From IMG/VR virus record IMGVR_UViG_3300037088_000332: DNA of 20,000 bases; one strand, given 5' to 3'. How positions within the stretch are numbered: the stretch's first letter is position 1; the number at the start of each line of letters is the position of its first letter. The notes under the pieces were generated by a model. That model ran no database searches. It saw nothing but the letters and a program-made list of their open reading frames with translations, and was not told where the DNA came from. Below, piece after piece: positions 210-18,554 of this stretch. Origin of the DNA: an uncultured virus (IMG/VR IMGVR_UViG_3300037088_000332). Lineage: Duplodnaviria > Heunggongvirae > Uroviricota > Caudoviricetes. The translations under genes and the position numbers were made by a program.

Positions 210-1250
210 CTAGTTGGCGTCTTTCCATTCTTTCATGGATACCCGCTGCACCGCAGCGGGATTGACGGCAAAGCCAGATTCCTCGCTGATGGAGAACCCG
301 AAGAACGGCCCGGGGTAACAAACTTCATGCCCGACATTGTTGATGTGCAGGTCGTCGAAGAGCGATAACATATTAAGCCTCACCTTGTCAACGACATACC
401 CTGCATATATTCCGTCGTCGGTACCATCTACTACCTTTGTGGCCTCGGTCTTCCCAGTGACATACATATACCCCTCGGGAACTGACCGGCTTTGGTAAAT
501 GTCAGTGTTGCCTATCCCCCCCATCAATCCGGTTTTAAGGCTTTTTTCAACATAGTTACAGTCCAGCCGAACTTTGTCTTTCAGCTTGAGTATCTTAGTA
601 TAATCATAAGGATGGACAAAGACGAACAATACGGTCATTACACCTCTGTTTGATAACTTATCCCTTGTTTTGGTCAAAAAGTCGGGACCAAACGGAATGT
701 CGTTCTCATCCTTGGACACGGCGTCAATTAAAGAGAACATCTGGGCGTTTTCGGCCGCAACCATTTCTGCTTTACCGAGGTTAAGACCACGGGCGATAAG
801 GTCAAACCGGCGCTCCTCGATATACGTTATTGGGAACACGGGGTTAGACGTAATTTTGAATGTCGGAACAGCCATATCTTGGTCGCAGTAACACCACGCC
901 GTCTGCTTGCCAGTGGGGACGGTAGAAGGCAATAGGTTAAGTTTGTTGAGGCTGGACACATGGTTCCCATCCACCACACGGAACGCCTTGCGGACAAGGC
1001 TCATGTAATCCCGGCGACGGGAGATAACGGGTCCGAGGGTAACCGCAAGTTTCTGGCGACCAGTGGTGGTGCTTAACAGGCTGTAGAGAGATGTAATCTG
1101 TTCCATAGTTTCAACTTCAGCGACGTTCGTAACTACGGTTTGGGCAAAATCGGTGCCTTCGGGGACTGACGGAATGTCCGTCGTGAACTCGGCTCCCGTG
1201 ATTGTTGTCATTCCCCCTAGTCTGGCCTGAAATAAACTGCGGTGTTCCAT
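210..1250 (-). CDS. Diverged major capsid protein homologue (HK97/encapsulin-like fold), 346 aa
   Basis: The segments GRQKLAVTLGPVISRRRDYMSLVRKAFRV and PTFKITSNPVFPITYIEERRFDLIARGLNLGKAEMVAAENAQMFSLID resemble, from memory, a large-phage capsid family (GRxKLAxxMxxPLRxRRDY...FEIASNPEIPLTQIKERRFDLIER). The C-terminal IYQSRSVPEGYMYV and GFSISEESGFAVNPAAV are typical of HK97 folds. Confidence 0.65.
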   Translation of the reverse strand: MEHRSLFQARLGGMTTITGAEFTTDIPSVPEGTDFAQTVVTNVAEVETMEQITSLYSLLSTTTGRQKLAVTLGPVISRRRDYMSLVRKAFRVVDGNHVSSLNKLNLLPSTVPTGKQTAWCYCDQDMAVPTFKITSNPVFPITYIEERRFDLIARGLNLGKAEMVAAENAQMFSLIDAVSKDENDIPFGPDFLTKTRDKLSNRGVMTVLFVFVHPYDYTKILKLKDKVRLDCNYVEKSLKTGLMGGIGNTDIYQSRSVPEGYMYVTGKTEATKVVDGTDDGIYAGYVVDKVRLNMLSLFDDLHINNVGHEVCYPGPFFGFSISEESGFAVNPAAVQRVSMKEWKDAN

Positions 1251-1287: not shown

Positions 1288-1321
1288 AAAAACAGGAAGG
1301 GGGGAGCTTTCGCTCCCCCCT
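1288..1321 (-). terminator. Rho-independent terminator
   Basis: Minus strand AGGGGGGAGC-GAAA-GCTCCCCCCT (10-bp stem, GNRA tetraloop) followed by TCCTGTTTTT. Confidence 0.8.
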
Positions 1322-1540
1322 CTTAATCTACCTTAATATTTGATGCACTTTGATTAGATGGTTGAAATAGGATTTAGGTTCCCTACATCATACACCTCCT
1401 GGTTTGAAGTAGGAAACGGGGATTTAAGGTTGTTTGCTCCCCGTTTCCTATGGGGGTGCGTACCGTGATGAGCACGACTCGCTCCCCTCCACCACCGGTT
1501 TCCCTCGTGACCCGGAAACGTTCATTGGATGTACTGCCAC
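1288..1540 (-). ncRNA. Putative structured small RNA / minigene transcript (~250 nt), family unknown
   Basis: Bounded by the GTATTATA motif (1544-1551) and a terminator. Hairpins at 1498-1519, 1453-1487 and 1410-1450 (perfect 13-bp stem). AGGAGGTG-T-ATG-ATG-TAG at 1400-1383. No ORF of useful length. Confidence 0.6.
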
Positions 1541-1543
1541 TTA

Positions 1544-1551
1544 TATAATAC
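1544..1551 (-). promoter_or_regulatory. Putative promoter -10 element GTATTATA
   Basis: Recurrent intergenic motif, here preceded by AT (ATGTATTATA), giving a TG immediately before TATTAT. Confidence 0.6.
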
Positions 1552-1652: not shown

Positions 1653-3554
1653 ATGAACATAAGGGTTTCGCCTAAGACAGGAAGAAAGTACGGTTTCCAG
1701 CACTGGAAGGCAGAGGGGACCCACGGACCTTATCAGAACACCTATACTATGATGACGGTTGACCAGCCTCCACTAGAGGTCAGCCAACTACAGTGGATGC
1801 CGCCTGTTTACGACCAAGGACAGGAAGGCTCTTGCACCGCTTTCGGGGCAAAGAACGTCAGGGAATTCCTTAGCATCAAGTATGTAAAAAAGCCGGTTTC
1901 GCTCAGCGCCCAGTTTCAGTACTATTGCGAGCGCCTGCTTAACGGAAACGTAGGCCAAGATGCCGGGTCCACAGTATCGACAGCAATGCTGTCAATGCGG
2001 ATGTTCGGCATCTGCCCCGACGCTGATGAGTCGTACACAACCCCCTTTGTGACCAAGCCGTCTCAGAAGGATTTCGTGGATGCCGCCCGCTATAAGATTG
2101 GGAACATTTATACTATCAACACCTTGACGGACATGAAGAACGTCCTTAACGCCGGATGGGTCTTTGAACTTGGATTCCTCGTCTATGAATCTTTTGAGTC
2201 CGATTCCGTGGCCACAACTGGCATCATGACCATGCCATCTTCCAAGGAGCAACTTCTCGGAGGTCATGCGGTCTGCCTTACCGCAGATACCAAGATATCC
2301 TTGCTGGACGGAACGGAGAGATCCATCCTAGACCTATGCAAGGGGTTTGAGGATAGGTCGTTCTGGGTATATAGCTGTGACGAAAACGGGGGTGTGGTTC
2401 CAGGGCTGGCACATCATCCACGAAAGACTGGAGAAAAAAAGCCGATAGTGAAGGTTACCCTGGATAATGGGGAGACAATCCGCTGCACCCCGGATGAGTG
2501 GTTCATGCTGCGCGATGGGTCGTATCGGGAGGCATTCAACCTAGTAGCGGGAGACAGTCTGATGCCATTGTACCGCAAGATAGACGAGAAGCAGTTGCCT
2601 GGCTATGAGATGGTGTATAACCTTGCCACGAAGCGGTGGAGGCATACTCATCGTGCTTCTTACAGCGGAACTTACGGGAAATATGACAGAGGCGTTATAC
2701 ACCACGACGATTTCAATAAGCGCAACAATGTTCCCGATAACCTGATTCATATGACATGGGAACAGCATACTGCTTTGCACAGTCAAAACATTGCCTTATT
2801 AGAAGATTATGCAAAAAGTGATGAGGGCAGAGAGCATAGCCGTCAACTTATGACCAAACTCTGGGGTGACCCAGATTGGCGGGAAGAGTCTATGCTACGG
2901 ATTAAAGAGAACGGTAAGAAGGTATCCTATCAGTTGGCGCTAGAGGGACGTTGCGGATTTCAAGCTATGGATAAGGATGTGATAGCTGCAATCGGGCACA
3001 TAACTGGTCCAAAGAATATCCTAAAGACTCAAACCCCTGAGGCGCGGACAAAGCAAATAGCTACCCTAAAATTTCGCTATGCAACCGACTCCGAATTTTC
3101 CAAGGTTGTACTGGAAAAAGCATTGAGGGCATCACAGGTTGCGGCTCTTCTTGCCCCGACGCAGGCGCAGATAGAGGCTCGTCAAGAGAATGTGAAAGTC
3201 GCCAGGGCTACCAAGGCTAAAAAGTTCGCTATGGCTGCCGTAAACAACCATAAGGTTGTCTCTGTGGAGGATGCTGGATATGAGGATGTCTATGATTTAA
3301 CCGTAGATAGATACCACAACTTTGCTCTTACTTCTGGGATATTTGTCCACAATTGTGTCTGGGGGTACAACGACACCTTTATGTTCCCCGGTCTCCCGAA
3401 CGGTGCGCTGGCCATCCGCAATAGTTGGGGTACTTGGGGCAACAACGGTAACTTCTTCATGCCCTACGGTTATCTGAACGGAATTGACCCTAGTGGCAAT
3501 GGACCGTTTGTGAGCGATGCCCATTTGTGCCATTTGGGACCGGTTTGGTCGTGA
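1653..3554 (+). CDS. Papain-like C1 cysteine peptidase precursor containing an intein (633 aa; about 273 aa after splicing)
   Basis: DQGQEGSCTAF (oxyanion Gln55, catalytic Cys61), LSAQFQYY, GGHAV (His205), and IRNSWGTWGNNGNFFMPY (catalytic Asn). Strong RBS GAGGAGG. Confidence 0.93.
   Translation: MNIRVSPKTGRKYGFQHWKAEGTHGPYQNTYTMMTVDQPPLEVSQLQWMPPVYDQGQEGSCTAFGAKNVREFLSIKYVKKPVSLSAQFQYYCERLLNGNVGQDAGSTVSTAMLSMRMFGICPDADESYTTPFVTKPSQKDFVDAARYKIGNIYTINTLTDMKNVLNAGWVFELGFLVYESFESDSVATTGIMTMPSSKEQLLGGHAVCLTADTKISLLDGTERSILDLCKGFEDRSFWVYSCDENGGVVPGLAHHPRKTGEKKPIVKVTLDNGETIRCTPDEWFMLRDGSYREAFNLVAGDSLMPLYRKIDEKQLPGYEMVYNLATKRWRHTHRASYSGTYGKYDRGVIHHDDFNKRNNVPDNLIHMTWEQHTALHSQNIALLEDYAKSDEGREHSRQLMTKLWGDPDWREESMLRIKENGKKVSYQLALEGRCGFQAMDKDVIAAIGHITGPKNILKTQTPEARTKQIATLKFRYATDSEFSKVVLEKALRASQVAALLAPTQAQIEARQENVKVARATKAKKFAMAAVNNHKVVSVEDAGYEDVYDLTVDRYHNFALTSGIFVHNCVWGYNDTFMFPGLPNGALAIRNSWGTWGNNGNFFMPYGYLNGIDPSGNGPFVSDAHLCHLGPVWS
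2274..3353 (+). mobile_element. Intein (360 aa) with HNH homing endonuclease domain
   Basis: Block A CLTADTKISLLDG; block B IRCTPDEWF; HNH IHHDDFNKRNNVPDNLIHMTWEQHTALH; block F VYDLTVDRYHNF; block G IFVHN followed by +1 Cys. Removal restores GGHAV-CVWGY. Confidence 0.95.
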
Positions 3555-15027: not shown

Positions 15028-17081
15028 TGCAATTGAAAATCACATTCCTCGGGCTCCTCTTCCATGGCTGGGTCTGGCTTTTTGTTCCTCAATTTACTAT
15101 TACTGGATTTCCTGTCTTTTTTCTCGAATATCATCGTGTAGTCATCGTCACCTACGGCCATATTGATGTAGTCGCCTTCGAGAAATTTTTTCATTGATGC
15201 CAAGCGGCGGTGGGCCGTGCGGAGCAGTTCGAGCTTGAACTGGTCATCCGAGTCACATTCCATCCCGCTGTCCAGGTTGAGGTCGTTGCCTCCACCCAGC
15301 AGCCCGGCACTGCTGGACTCTCCCAAGATGGCCTCTACCACGCCCTTCTTCCCGATGAGGACATCAATGGTGTATTCGTTCACCGTACCCTTCGCCACGA
15401 GGATGTGGAGGGTACAGGACGTGTGCGGAGAGGCTGACCGCACCATCCTGCCTACTAATTGAATCAGGTCGCCCCAAGACCAGGGAAGGTCTATACAAAC
15501 TAGGTGAGCAGCCTGTTGGAGATTCAAGCCTTCGATACCGGCCGCATTAATGAAAATCAGGTCATGGTCGGGAGACTCCTGAAACAATCGCTTGGCGACA
15601 TTCCTCTTTTTCTCCTTCTCCTTCCCGGTGATTCGTAGAGGTATGCGGGAGGTAAACTTACCGTTCTTGCTAAGCTCCTCTAGTCGGTCTATATGGCGGA
15701 GAAACTTGGAAAATACGATGACCTTCTCACCCTTCAGGTCACCGTCCAAAAGGTCAAGGAGCGCTTCCTCTTTGGGAGACAAGATAGGGGAGAAAAAGTT
15801 CTTCTTGTCCGCCCGGTCGATGAGTCCCCAGTGGTTGGCCACAAGCTCTTGCACCGACAGCATAGTCATAGCATTGCTGGGGTCCCTCTCCTTCTCATAA
15901 ATCTCCCCGGCGACCTTGATAAGGCTGGGGGGAAGGATGAAGGTGCCGTTGGGGATGTCTTCCAGCAGGAGTTTTCTCTGCTTGTCGTCGAGGTCCACCG
16001 GATGGTAGGTCGTCTGGAGTGTAGGCAAGGGTTCCTTGACCTGTGCCTGCGACCTCCCGAGGTAGAAGGGGCGTAATCCCTTCTTAAACTCCTCCATATT
16101 CTGGTAGCCGTCGAGGACCCGCTTATGCATCCCCCTTCCGACATACTGCTTGTGGAAGATGCAGAACTTTTCTCCGAATTCCCACATATTACCGAACGGA
16201 CGGACGCCGAGGGCGGAGATGGCAGCGTAGAATTCTGTTGCGTTGTTCTTCATCGCCGTGCCGGTAAGCCCCCACGCCCATCGAGCAGGCTTAGACAGAT
16301 ATATGACGAGGGCACGAGTTTGTGAACCTGATTGCTTAAATCTATGTGCTTCGTCAAAGATGATGACTGTCCTATCTCCGTGCTCCTTAATAATCTTGGC
16401 GAACTCCCGTATCTCCGACGATACTGGCTCTATCTTGGGCTTGCCGTTATCATCAAACTTTCCAGGTATCACCCTGCGCTTTCCAATCATGGAACTGTAC
16501 TTGCCGATGAGGACATCCTTCTTGTGACCAGAAAGGAAGTCTCTAAGTTGCTGATGGCGAGCAGCATACGACTTTATCCCCCGATATTTGTCTACCATGA
16601 CGAAGGGGCGCAGGAGGCTGAACCGACGAATCTCGTCAAACCATTGCCAAGTCGTTGACCTAGTAGTGACTACAAGAACCTTAAGGTCGGGGATGCGGTC
16701 TTTAAGCCAGCATACGGCGGCGATACAGTCGCTAGTCTTTCGGAGGCCAACTGCGTCCCCGACCATAAAACGGTTCATCCTGGCTAAGTGGTGGATTTGA
16801 ACTTTCTGATATTCCCGAAGAATTAAGGACTCCTCTTCTTGCTCAGTGCTCAAATTTAGTATTTTAGTTCTGAGCAGAGGAGGCCACTTGAATGGTATAG
16901 GGTTGTTAATATTCCCAACTTCATCAATTTGGCTGTCCCACTTCCTAAGCAGAAAGAGCTTGTAGAGTATATCATGGCTGATTCCCAACTCGTTAGTATA
17001 ATCAGTTATCAGTGGGCATGGCTGCTCTAACTGTTGCCCATCTACGGCTTTGTCCTTCGCTAATGCGTTTTCTATGCTCAT
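15024..17081 (-). CDS. SNF2/SF2 helicase-like ATPase, up to 685 aa (start uncertain)
   Basis: LREYQ (Q motif), GDAVGLRKT (atypical Walker A), IIFDEAH, WGLTGT, VIVFS, GIEGLNLQQA, DLPWS, QLVGRMVR. Confidence 0.92.
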   Translation of the reverse strand: MSIENALAKDKAVDGQQLEQPCPLITDYTNELGISHDILYKLFLLRKWDSQIDEVGNINNPIPFKWPPLLRTKILNLSTEQEEESLILREYQKVQIHHLARMNRFMVGDAVGLRKTSDCIAAVCWLKDRIPDLKVLVVTTRSTTWQWFDEIRRFSLLRPFVMVDKYRGIKSYAARHQQLRDFLSGHKKDVLIGKYSSMIGKRRVIPGKFDDNGKPKIEPVSSEIREFAKIIKEHGDRTVIIFDEAHRFKQSGSQTRALVIYLSKPARWAWGLTGTAMKNNATEFYAAISALGVRPFGNMWEFGEKFCIFHKQYVGRGMHKRVLDGYQNMEEFKKGLRPFYLGRSQAQVKEPLPTLQTTYHPVDLDDKQRKLLLEDIPNGTFILPPSLIKVAGEIYEKERDPSNAMTMLSVQELVANHWGLIDRADKKNFFSPILSPKEEALLDLLDGDLKGEKVIVFSKFLRHIDRLEELSKNGKFTSRIPLRITGKEKEKKRNVAKRLFQESPDHDLIFINAAGIEGLNLQQAAHLVCIDLPWSWGDLIQLVGRMVRSASPHTSCTLHILVAKGTVNEYTIDVLIGKKGVVEAILGESSSAGLLGGGNDLNLDSGMECDSDDQFKLELLRTAHRRLASMKKFLEGDYINMAVGDDDYTMIFEKKDRKSSNSKLRNKKPDPAMEEEPEECDFQLQ

Positions 17082-17805
17082 CTGTGAATCCTATGGTTTT
17101 TATTCTCAAAGATGCTGATACTGATTGTTTACGTTTAGTTTCCTCAGAAACTGGCTGCTGGCTAAAACGCCTTTGTTGCCCCTCCTTCATCCGCTCTAAA
17201 GTTTCAGGAGAGTATGTACGACCCATTGTTTTTTGCGATATCAATTTTCTAACAGAATCGGGTCTTTTAACCCCCCTTCGACTAATACTTAAAAGCCGTA
17301 ATCTCTGAATATGTTCAACAGATAGAGGATTTTCTTTGAATCGTTTATATTGAGAAACTGACATTTTATTACGGGATTCTAAAGAGTGCGGACCTTTAAA
17401 CACTGGGGGAATAGTCGGGAACTTCCCTCTACCCTGTTTCCACATTTCTTTTGAAGCACGACCAGTTTTTTTACGAGCTTCTTGGGAAAGTGGACCGGTG
17501 CGTCCCTCCCCCCCTCTACAGATGTTGTAGCCATATTCGGAGTCTTGAGCTTTGAGGAACTTGATAAAGTCTTGTTCAGTTTCGTCAAGTTCGGGTTTGG
17601 TCTGGATATCCGACCGAAGGGCATGGATGGACCAAGATGTGTGATTTGGATGCTTTCGCATTGAGTTGTAGAGATAAGAATGCTGAGAGGTATTTCTCTT
17701 AGCAGCCGATAGTTTGTCCTGAAGGTACTTTTTTAGGTTAGTCCCCTTATGTTGACCGACATAGTATTTTCCAGTTTCATGATTCACAATCAGATAGATA
17801 AACAT
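17002..17805 (-). CDS. GIY-YIG homing endonuclease with NUMOD3-like repeats, 267 aa
   Basis: FIYLIVNHETGKYYVGQH, LYNSMRKH, LDETE..FI, YGYNICRGGEG, then repeated (H/Y/V)SxETRxK(M/I)S units; AT-rich. Confidence 0.92.
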   Translation of the reverse strand: MFIYLIVNHETGKYYVGQHKGTNLKKYLQDKLSAAKRNTSQHSYLYNSMRKHPNHTSWSIHALRSDIQTKPELDETEQDFIKFLKAQDSEYGYNICRGGEGRTGPLSQEARKKTGRASKEMWKQGRGKFPTIPPVFKGPHSLESRNKMSVSQYKRFKENPLSVEHIQRLRLLSISRRGVKRPDSVRKLISQKTMGRTYSPETLERMKEGQQRRFSQQPVSEETKRKQSVSASLRIKTIGFTDEHRKRISEGQSRRWATVRAAMPTDN

Positions 17806-18171: not shown

Positions 18172-18444
18172 TTAGCTCTTCGTCAGGAGGTCGGCAAGCT
18201 CCGTTGGGCTTACCTTCCTCCAGTCCTTGCTCTTCTTTTCCTTGACCTCTACATCGAAGCCGGGAAGTCCGTCAATGTCGTTTTCAACTATGGTTATCTC
18301 CCCGAGAGCGGGAAACTTCTCGGTCGCCGGAATGTCAATGACAACCTCTGGTCTCCCGAACGGTGAGCCGTCCTCAAGGCGGTTTCGTACCCATGCCTTG
18401 GATATGTCAATTCCGTTGACCCTCAGGAACATCCGGGGAGCCAT
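18172..18444 (-). CDS. Hypothetical protein, 90 aa
   Basis: GGAGGG RBS; CAGTATCTT promoter-like motif at 18471-18479. Confidence 0.75.
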   Translation of the reverse strand: MAPRMFLRVNGIDISKAWVRNRLEDGSPFGRPEVVIDIPATEKFPALGEITIVENDIDGLPGFDVEVKEKKSKDWRKVSPTELADLLTKS

Positions 18445-18508: not shown

Positions 18509-18554
18509 GGGGAGGTCTGGGGGGAGGTCTGGGGGGAGGTCTGGGGGGAGGTCT
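18509..18554. repeat. Tandem repeat (GGGGGGAGGTCT) x 3.8
   Basis: One 10-nt partial copy plus three perfect 12-nt copies, intergenic. Confidence 0.95.

Follow-up and report, generated by a model that had tools for sequence, protein, structure and literature searches.

A candidate promoter-to-terminator RNA unit upstream of the capsid gene in an uncultured giant-phage-like genome from peat

Introduction

In the jumbo phage 201phi2-1, the capsid gene lies behind three consecutive promoters, two of which are immediately followed by terminators (PMC11512511). The authors propose that this arrangement governs when the capsid gene is expressed, and they invoke antitermination. Further, they describe 11 short RNAs, eight of which arise by premature termination in a 5ʹ untranslated region (UTR), one of these just upstream of a transfer RNA (tRNA) gene, and they cite phiKZ as having three promoters ahead of its capsid gene (PMC11512511). 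A locus with a comparable layout is described here from a 20,000-nucleotide (nt) stretch of DNA, termed the window, that belongs to an uncultured virus of the Caudoviricetes (IMG/VR record IMGVR_UViG_3300037088_000332). The element in question occupies positions 1551 to 1288 of the minus strand, directly upstream of a capsid gene; it opens with a putative promoter box, closes with a predicted intrinsic terminator and probably makes a folded RNA of ~250 nt that runs from the one to the other.

With 201phi2-1 and phiKZ the locus shares serial promoters before the capsid gene and a terminator right after an upstream promoter. A further likeness lies in units of less than 250 nt that end just past their start; the one placed before a tRNA recalls a unit in a relative of the window, G001, that is described below. 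The lineages differ: the capsid protein here is of the phage G/Tunturi_5 type, the promoter sequence is another one and there is no sequence similarity. Moreover, the RNA ends of the 201phi2-1 and phiKZ units were mapped by ONT-cappable-seq, whereas those of the present unit are predicted from the sequence.

Lambdoid phages provide a second point of comparison. Their constitutive late promoter PR' is terminated at tR', and the short RNA has become the Hfq-binding regulatory small RNA (sRNA) StxS (PMC7547250). Like PR'-tR' (6S/StxS), the present locus has a promoter and then an immediate intrinsic terminator ahead of late genes, and the lambdoid case indicates that a short terminated RNA can acquire a regulatory role. 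Unlike that system, the present locus yielded no Q-like antiterminator or Q-binding site, and a second promoter follows the terminator. Lambda is not known to have a second promoter after tR'.

The reading favored here, tentatively and at somewhat under an even chance, takes the element as the first of two late promoters arranged in tandem before the capsid gene, with most of its transcripts ending at a promoter-proximal terminator. An earlier, sequence-only reading of the same DNA had described a stand-alone structured RNA composed of a promoter motif, three hairpins, a Shine-Dalgarno (SD) sequence followed by ATG ATG TAG, an AU-rich stretch and a terminator, and all of these features are present on the minus strand where that reading had placed them.

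Promoter and terminator

The box GTATTATA occurs four times in the window, always on the minus strand, against 0.34 expected copies, and at least four copies were reached in 0 of 200 shuffles; TATTATA has no other occurrence in the window. The copy that opens the element, P1 (1551-1544), contains a -10-like TATTAT at 1550-1545. A second copy, P2 (1274-1267), follows the terminator and stands 16 nt ahead of the capsid ATG (1250). Of the remaining two, one precedes, by 15 nt, an ATG located downstream of the capsid gene, and the other stands 11 nt ahead of the ATG of a GIY-YIG endonuclease gene. Four relatives whose capsid protein is 47% identical (L001-L004) likewise have the box 16 nt ahead of their capsid ATG. 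In G001, a 78-kb record with a capsid 43% identical by tblastn, the box is found three times and a control pattern not at all: ~165 nt upstream of a transfer-messenger RNA (tmRNA) gene, upstream of an array of nine tRNA genes and, apparently, within a coding sequence. Because it stands ahead of RNA genes in G001, the box acts in transcription, not translation, and it is best described as a putative late promoter.

A G is present seven bases past TATTAT at 9 of 9 sites in a first set and at 10 of 13 sites in a second set drawn from G002, G004 and G005. P1 would then start at G1538, 7 nt past the hexamer, and P2 at G1261. If the G is the start site, messenger RNAs (mRNAs) behind the box have leaders of ~6-12 nt, and the capsid mRNA would carry an 11-nt leader without an SD sequence. 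The distance from box to ATG before real genes is 7-21 nt, and the short leader would also apply at the L004 2974-3000 site. An extended promoter pattern gave 118 hits in viral contigs, most of them due to chance in AT-rich contigs; the few high-GC relatives among them were informative, for the promoter only.

At the other end of the element lies the predicted intrinsic terminator (1322-1288, minus strand), a stem-loop at 1322-1297 with an 11-pair stem (8 G-C pairs) and a GAAA loop, followed by the tail TTCCTGTTTTT that runs to 1288. Its predicted stability of -24.7 kcal/mol (z -4.1) was matched by 0 of 300 shuffles, and it ranks first of the 17 terminator-like sites in the window. When it is blocked in silico, the fold loses 20 kcal/mol and no rival helix emerges; control of read-through would therefore need a factor acting in trans. 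Among the 28 open reading frames (ORFs) scanned, Pfam and PHROGs scans recognized no antiterminator gene. Promoter (1551-1544) and terminator (1322-1288) lie within ~300 nt of each other on the late-gene strand, directly upstream of the capsid ATG (1250).

Folding of the transcript

Hairpins of the unit, all on the minus strand, were compared with 300 shuffles each, and they differ widely in how far they exceed chance. Hairpin 3 (1450-1410), a perfect 13-base-pair (bp) stem with a 15-nt loop, has a predicted energy of -22.2 kcal/mol (z -6.9), which 0 of 300 shuffles equaled; no other of the five perfect inverted repeats in the 20 kb is as long. Hairpin 2 (1487-1453), an interrupted 12-bp stem of -16.4 kcal/mol, also stands out (z -2.7; 5 of 300). 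Hairpin 1 (1519-1498), a 6-bp GUUUCC/GGAAAC stem, is not beyond chance (z -0.36; 100 of 300), nor is a weak predicted hairpin around the start-stop sequence (1395-1358; z -1.2; 35 of 300) with the loop AACCUAAA. The features listed in the sequence-only reading thus divide into those that exceed chance, namely the box, hairpin 3, hairpin 2 and the terminator, and those that do not, namely hairpin 1 and the SD-AUG-AUG-UAG motif. That reading had also held that two mismatches of hairpin 2 become G-U pairs on the minus strand only; the predicted fold contains one U-G wobble pair there, with an adjacent G-U pair that is possible.

Between the start-stop hairpin and the terminator lies an AU-rich spacer (1357-1323, minus strand) that is predicted to be largely unpaired. 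A terminator hairpin with a U tail after an A/U-rich single strand is what is looked for in Hfq-type sRNAs, and the single-stranded stretch would suit a chaperone-bound small RNA. Two further observations concern the loops. The motif AACCU(U)AAAUCC is present in the loops of both hairpin 3 (1431-1420) and the start-stop hairpin (1380-1370), and UUAAGGU in the spacer (1336-1330) is complementary to ACCUUAA in the hairpin 3 loop. This 7-nt complementarity, spotted post hoc, was reached by 23 of 2000 shuffles; it hints at a possible tertiary contact between the hairpin 3 loop and the spacer or tail.

The same features could instead act at the level of DNA, with the 13-bp palindrome (15-bp spacer) and the AACCT(T)AAATCC repeats binding a regulator of a divergent promoter region or serving some other DNA transaction, and with the RNA fold secondary. 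Such a role is quite unlikely. It would fit the location in a 400-bp divergent stretch flanked by the capsid gene and the sole plus-strand gene, as well as the perfection of the palindrome, the equal folding of both strands and the recurrence of the AACCT(T)AAATCC motif at 1431-1420 and 1380-1370. An operator, however, would be unusual at the palindrome's position, ~90-130 nt past P1 and ~200 nt away from the plus-strand gene; the wobble pairs of hairpin 2 and of the start-stop hairpin fit a minus-strand RNA only, and a promoter and a terminator bracket the element neatly.

Coding potential

Two candidate reading frames cross the unit. A 25-codon ORF (1525-1448, minus strand) begins at an ATG 18 nt past the box, at about position +14 of the inferred RNA and the first AUG in it, and ends at a UAG formed by the opening bases of hairpin 3. 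A 56-codon open frame (1553-1383, minus strand) ends in-frame at ATG ATG TAG; its ATG overlaps the promoter box and therefore lies outside the inferred RNA. In the 56-codon frame, neither Pfam nor PHROGs found anything, Pfam not even at E <= 10. An exhaustive phmmer search with this frame returned 8 matches at E <= 1e-3 (best 3.8e-7), all of them sums of 4-8 weak stretches in repeat proteins of 594-2617 amino acids (aa). Five of the matched proteins, when scanned with Pfam, fell into three different immunoglobulin-like (Ig-like) repeat families, and the top two aligned pairwise to the frame with ~25 bits. An Ig-like domain in the 56-codon frame was accordingly rejected as an artefact of summed weak repeats.

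These results bear on whether the unit is a small-protein gene, either a short-leader mRNA whose AUG at 1525 opens a 25-aa peptide or one that uses the 56-codon frame (1553-1383) or a 30-codon version of it that starts at GTG, with hairpins and terminator as ordinary mRNA features. This is unlikely, although several points speak for it: the spacing of the 1525 ATG from the box falls within the range of real genes, an ATG at 18 nt is present in the G001 unit too and opens 31 codons there, the 56-codon frame is uninterrupted and the phmmer matches reach Ig-like repeat proteins. Against it stand the position of the 56-codon ATG outside the inferred RNA, the lack of an SD sequence ahead of either the 1525 or the 1553 ATG, the unrelatedness of the window and G001 candidate peptides, the composite nature of the phmmer matches, and the course of the candidate ORFs through the most stable hairpins. 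Additionally, tblastn against all retrieved loci gave no match. Judged on sequence, there appears to be no credible gene within the unit.

Searches for known RNAs gave nothing either. Rfam returned 0 matches at the gathering score in the window, and the sequence-only reading had likewise recognized no known RNA family; the best sub-threshold match in 1200-1700 scored 21.7 bits against a gathering score of 56. ARAGORN found no tRNA or tmRNA in the window.

Shine-Dalgarno sequence and start-stop

The SD-like sequence AGGAGGTG (1400-1393, minus strand) is followed by ATG ATG TAG (1391-1383), a two-codon mini-ORF that also forms the final three codons of the 56-codon frame. Its AGGAGGUG lies 3 nt ahead of the first AUG and 6 nt ahead of the second, after which comes UAG, so that AGGAGGUGU AUG AUG UAG has the sequence of a start-stop or two-codon minigene. 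AGGAGG occurs 22 times in the window on both strands. Seven AGGAGG-N4-10-ATG sites result, of which three open long ORFs and two reach a stop within two codons, namely the present site and one at 16892 on the plus strand, antisense to the helicase gene; at this density the pattern therefore arises by chance. In the predicted ensemble, the SD bases after the first have unpaired probabilities of 0.01-0.32, and the nine AUGAUGUAG bases 0.01-0.14, save two at ~0.96. The motif AGGAGGUGU-AUG-AUG-UAG looks incidental and does not stand out from chance.

The sequence-only reading had placed this motif at the center of its interpretation, as an RNA that recruits ribosomes and encodes at most Met-Met. 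It may be compared with lambda bar, a two-codon minigene (AUG AUA stop) whose codons differ from those of the window. Functional start-stops with SD-like sequences exist in E. coli, where those of yecJ and hslR lie inside genes and were demonstrated by Ribo-RET and toeprinting (10.1101/520783). Minigenes are likewise described as able to sequester tRNA and to starve cells of it (PMC2490762). What the motif shares with these systems is an AUG that is preceded by an SD-like sequence and followed, at once or one codon later, by a stop. The E. coli sites are intragenic and ribosome-mapped; that of the window is no rarer than expected by chance and would be paired in the predicted fold.

A ribosome-engaging RNA that acts as a ribosome or initiator-tRNA sink, as a minigene similar to lambda bar or as a ribosome-protected RNA is, on balance, very unlikely. 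The spacing of AGGAGGUG to the AUGs and the existence of the precedents would allow it, and by analogy with them ribosome loading would be biologically possible; nothing points to it, and it is not favored. The motif is no rarer than chance, its SD and AUGs are mostly paired in the predicted ensemble, it is the natural end of the 56-codon frame and it is absent from the analogous G001 unit. Also very unlikely is an elaborated version, in which a stand-alone late RNA from its own strong promoter would load host ribosomes on an SD plus fMet-Met minigene, and would thereby park ribosomes, drain initiator or elongator Met-tRNA or protect the RNA, while the SD-poor, short-leader late mRNAs (such as that of the capsid with its 11-nt leader) would be translated otherwise. 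The 56-codon frame, the predicted pairing of SD and AUGs and the second box, P2, had been overlooked in the sequence-only reading.

A separate SD-related feature was observed elsewhere in the window. At 18509-18554, a perfect 12-nt tandem repeat of 3.8 copies (plus-strand GGGGAGGTCTGG) lies in the gap ahead of a gene at 18172-18444 on the minus strand; on the transcribed minus strand it reads AGACCTCCCCCC and gives four anti-Shine-Dalgarno-like CCUCC copies.

Related loci

Relatives of the unit were sought by several routes. A blastn search with 1251-1652 against 50,697 phage records gave no match, an exact 22-mer was found 0 times in viral contigs, and no relatives of the capsid gene turned up in genome contigs. 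Capsid loci for comparison numbered 84, comprising 4 from metagenome contigs and 80 of 161 from viral contigs. Against these, blastn-short found 12-13-nt words only and nhmmer had no hit; a single-sequence covariance model of the unit (R1) recovered the window itself only, as did this model together with BLAST against five related records. Used as a pattern, the hairpin 3 arms gave 36 genome and 3 viral hits, all of them unrelated hairpins. In the capsid relatives among the 84 loci the unit is absent, and a same-strand coding gene lies directly upstream instead. Four leaders share no k-mers of at least 8 nt beyond their promoter-proximal bases.

The closest parallel is a unit in G001 (locus L125) that consists of the box, a 168-nt fold (z -6.1), a GAAA-loop terminator with a clean U-tract and the tRNA array, whose first tRNA gene lies ~15-20 nt past the terminator with no other box between. 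It shares with the window unit the same box and first bases (GTATTATATARGTGG), an ATG at 18 nt, a stable fold and a GAAA-loop terminator before highly expressed genes. It differs in that there is no similarity past the first 15 nt, no SD-start-stop and no second promoter after its terminator, and in its length of ~168 versus 250 nt; the 31 codons that its ATG opens are unrelated to the window's 25-codon ORF. From this sequence comparison, the L125 unit is analogous, not homologous, to the window unit.

Elsewhere, in the 140-kb record G002, a promoter that matches P1 in 18 of 19 positions is followed by a 215-nt hairpin-rich leader and then a protein gene. The window's own promoter and leader at 154 have a homologue in G002 (75 of 100 positions identical; E 4e-12). 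Two of the leader cases end in a terminator directly ahead of very highly expressed genes. Transcription units with this promoter type thus commonly begin with a long folded RNA.

The G002 case also lends itself to a different account, in which the unit is a leftover, an old promoter stripped of its gene by rearrangement, with a decaying and functionless spacer that still folds and terminates. Such an origin is improbable. In its favor, the neighborhood has been rearranged by comparison with all relatives, where genes on the same strand immediately precede the capsid gene; the G002 promoter drives a leader and then a protein gene; and mobile elements abound in the window (an intein that carries an HNH endonuclease, and a GIY-YIG endonuclease). 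Against it, both the window's longest perfect hairpin and its best terminator would be unexpected in a decaying spacer, and a gene remnant was rejected, the best tblastx match of the intergenic DNA to the closest relatives' loci having an E of 0.022 over 23 aa. Of four runs whose contigs were compared with the window, three span the element fully and are identical, and the fourth gives partial coverage with no listed variant inside the element. This identity across three runs shows only that a single strain was sampled, and, with no variation among the contigs of the runs, there is no population variation to analyze.

G001 has RNA genes of interest beyond the unit. In L124 (238-551 and 980-1333, minus strand, plus neighbors) and L125 (1-1324, minus strand), a tmRNA with the tag ANMQYAFA and 15 ARAGORN tRNA predictions were found, and a bacterial class A RNase P RNA is likewise encoded by G001 (187.7 bits; gathering score 100). 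None of the eight huge-phage papers covered by a full-text search uses the term 'RNase P RNA', and this phage-encoded RNA may merit attention of its own.

Genomic setting

The window has a G+C content of 51%, and its long ORFs lie almost all on the minus strand. The major head (capsid) protein gene (210..1250, minus strand) encodes 346 aa and matches phrog_2522 (E 1.1e-6). A tblastn search pairs it with the major head proteins annotated in Tunturiibacter phage Tunturi_5 (309 kb) and Bacillus phage G (498 kb) and, further, with an unannotated 485-kb uncultured phage record; the closest relative of the protein is P0002, 52% identical and located on a 63-kb contig. Of the 15 sequencing runs listed with this DNA, 14 are labeled peat metagenome. 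The source is an uncultured giant-phage-like genome from peat.

The element sits in a 402-bp divergent gap between the capsid gene and a papain-like (papain-family) peptidase gene (1653-3554, plus strand). The latter is split by the intein with its HNH endonuclease and is the window's sole long plus-strand gene. The GIY-YIG homing endonuclease gene (17002-17805, minus strand), with its own GTATTATA box 11 nt ahead of its ATG, overlaps the start of an SNF2 helicase ORF by 80 nt, and a 66% identical copy of the endonuclease is present in the otherwise dissimilar record G002. A further box, at 154-147 on the minus strand, is followed by an 11-bp GC hairpin (78-45; 12-nt loop) and then by an SD sequence and an ATG at 25; the first ATG behind that box (131) may not be the true start.

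Discussion

Under the tandem-promoter reading, RNA polymerase would initiate near G1538, hairpins 2 and 3 would fold during their emergence and most polymerases would halt at 1322-1288, releasing a folded, probably non-coding RNA of ~250 nt. The second promoter would yield, from ~G1261, the capsid mRNA with its 11-nt leader, and polymerases that read through the terminator, perhaps via a phage antitermination factor, would add to it. The terminator might also shield the capsid promoter P2 from upstream transcription. The short RNA could be a by-product or could have acquired a small-RNA role of its own. Termination, read-through and any function of the RNA are, in this account, predictions from the DNA sequence.

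The dedicated transcript of ~250 nt proposed in the sequence-only reading receives indirect support, in that the box is enriched, is strand-specific and stands before RNA genes in a relative, the terminator is the top-ranked one and no credible gene is present. Its accompanying claim of ribosome recruitment found no support, for the reasons given above. Among the alternatives that it listed, an attenuator that controls read-through into the capsid-like gene is the closest to the reading favored here.

Several observations weigh against that reading. P2 renders read-through from P1 unnecessary for capsid expression, and the phages behind the phiKZ-like precedents are unrelated and use other promoters. 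None of the search routes turned up a homologue of the unit, and among the 15 listed runs none is on record as RNA. The box itself is imperfect as a marker: the 8-mer alone is unspecific in DNA of ~51% GC, G002 (~51% GC) has 9 box matches versus 6 for the control, many of them by chance, and 3 of the 13 sites in G002, G004 and G005 are without the G at the seventh base. Both strands fold about equally (whole-unit z -4.25; opposite strand z -4.07), so folding energy leaves the strand unassigned; the unit is assigned to the minus strand because of the promoter, the T-tract and the wobble pairs. Within the terminator, the U-tract UUCCUGUUUUU passes a scan rule of at least 5 T per 8 bases and is broken by CCUG, and no built-in antiterminator fold is visible in the RNA. 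Finally, the ATG 18 nt past the box, here and in G001, falls inside the 7-21 nt range of real genes, and a short peptide from it is possible.

If the tandem-promoter reading is true, tandem promoters plus an early terminator before the capsid gene would be present in a second, unrelated giant-phage lineage; the arrangement has so far been mapped only in phiKZ-like Pseudomonas phages. It would suggest a general means of timing or boosting capsid expression and a recurrent source of phage small RNAs. By-products of the analysis, maybe more useful than the element itself, are a promoter consensus for this uncultured peat-phage clade, GTATTATA-N5-G (often GTATTATATARGTGG), and the late-mRNA leaders of only ~6-12 nt that it would imply for the clade.

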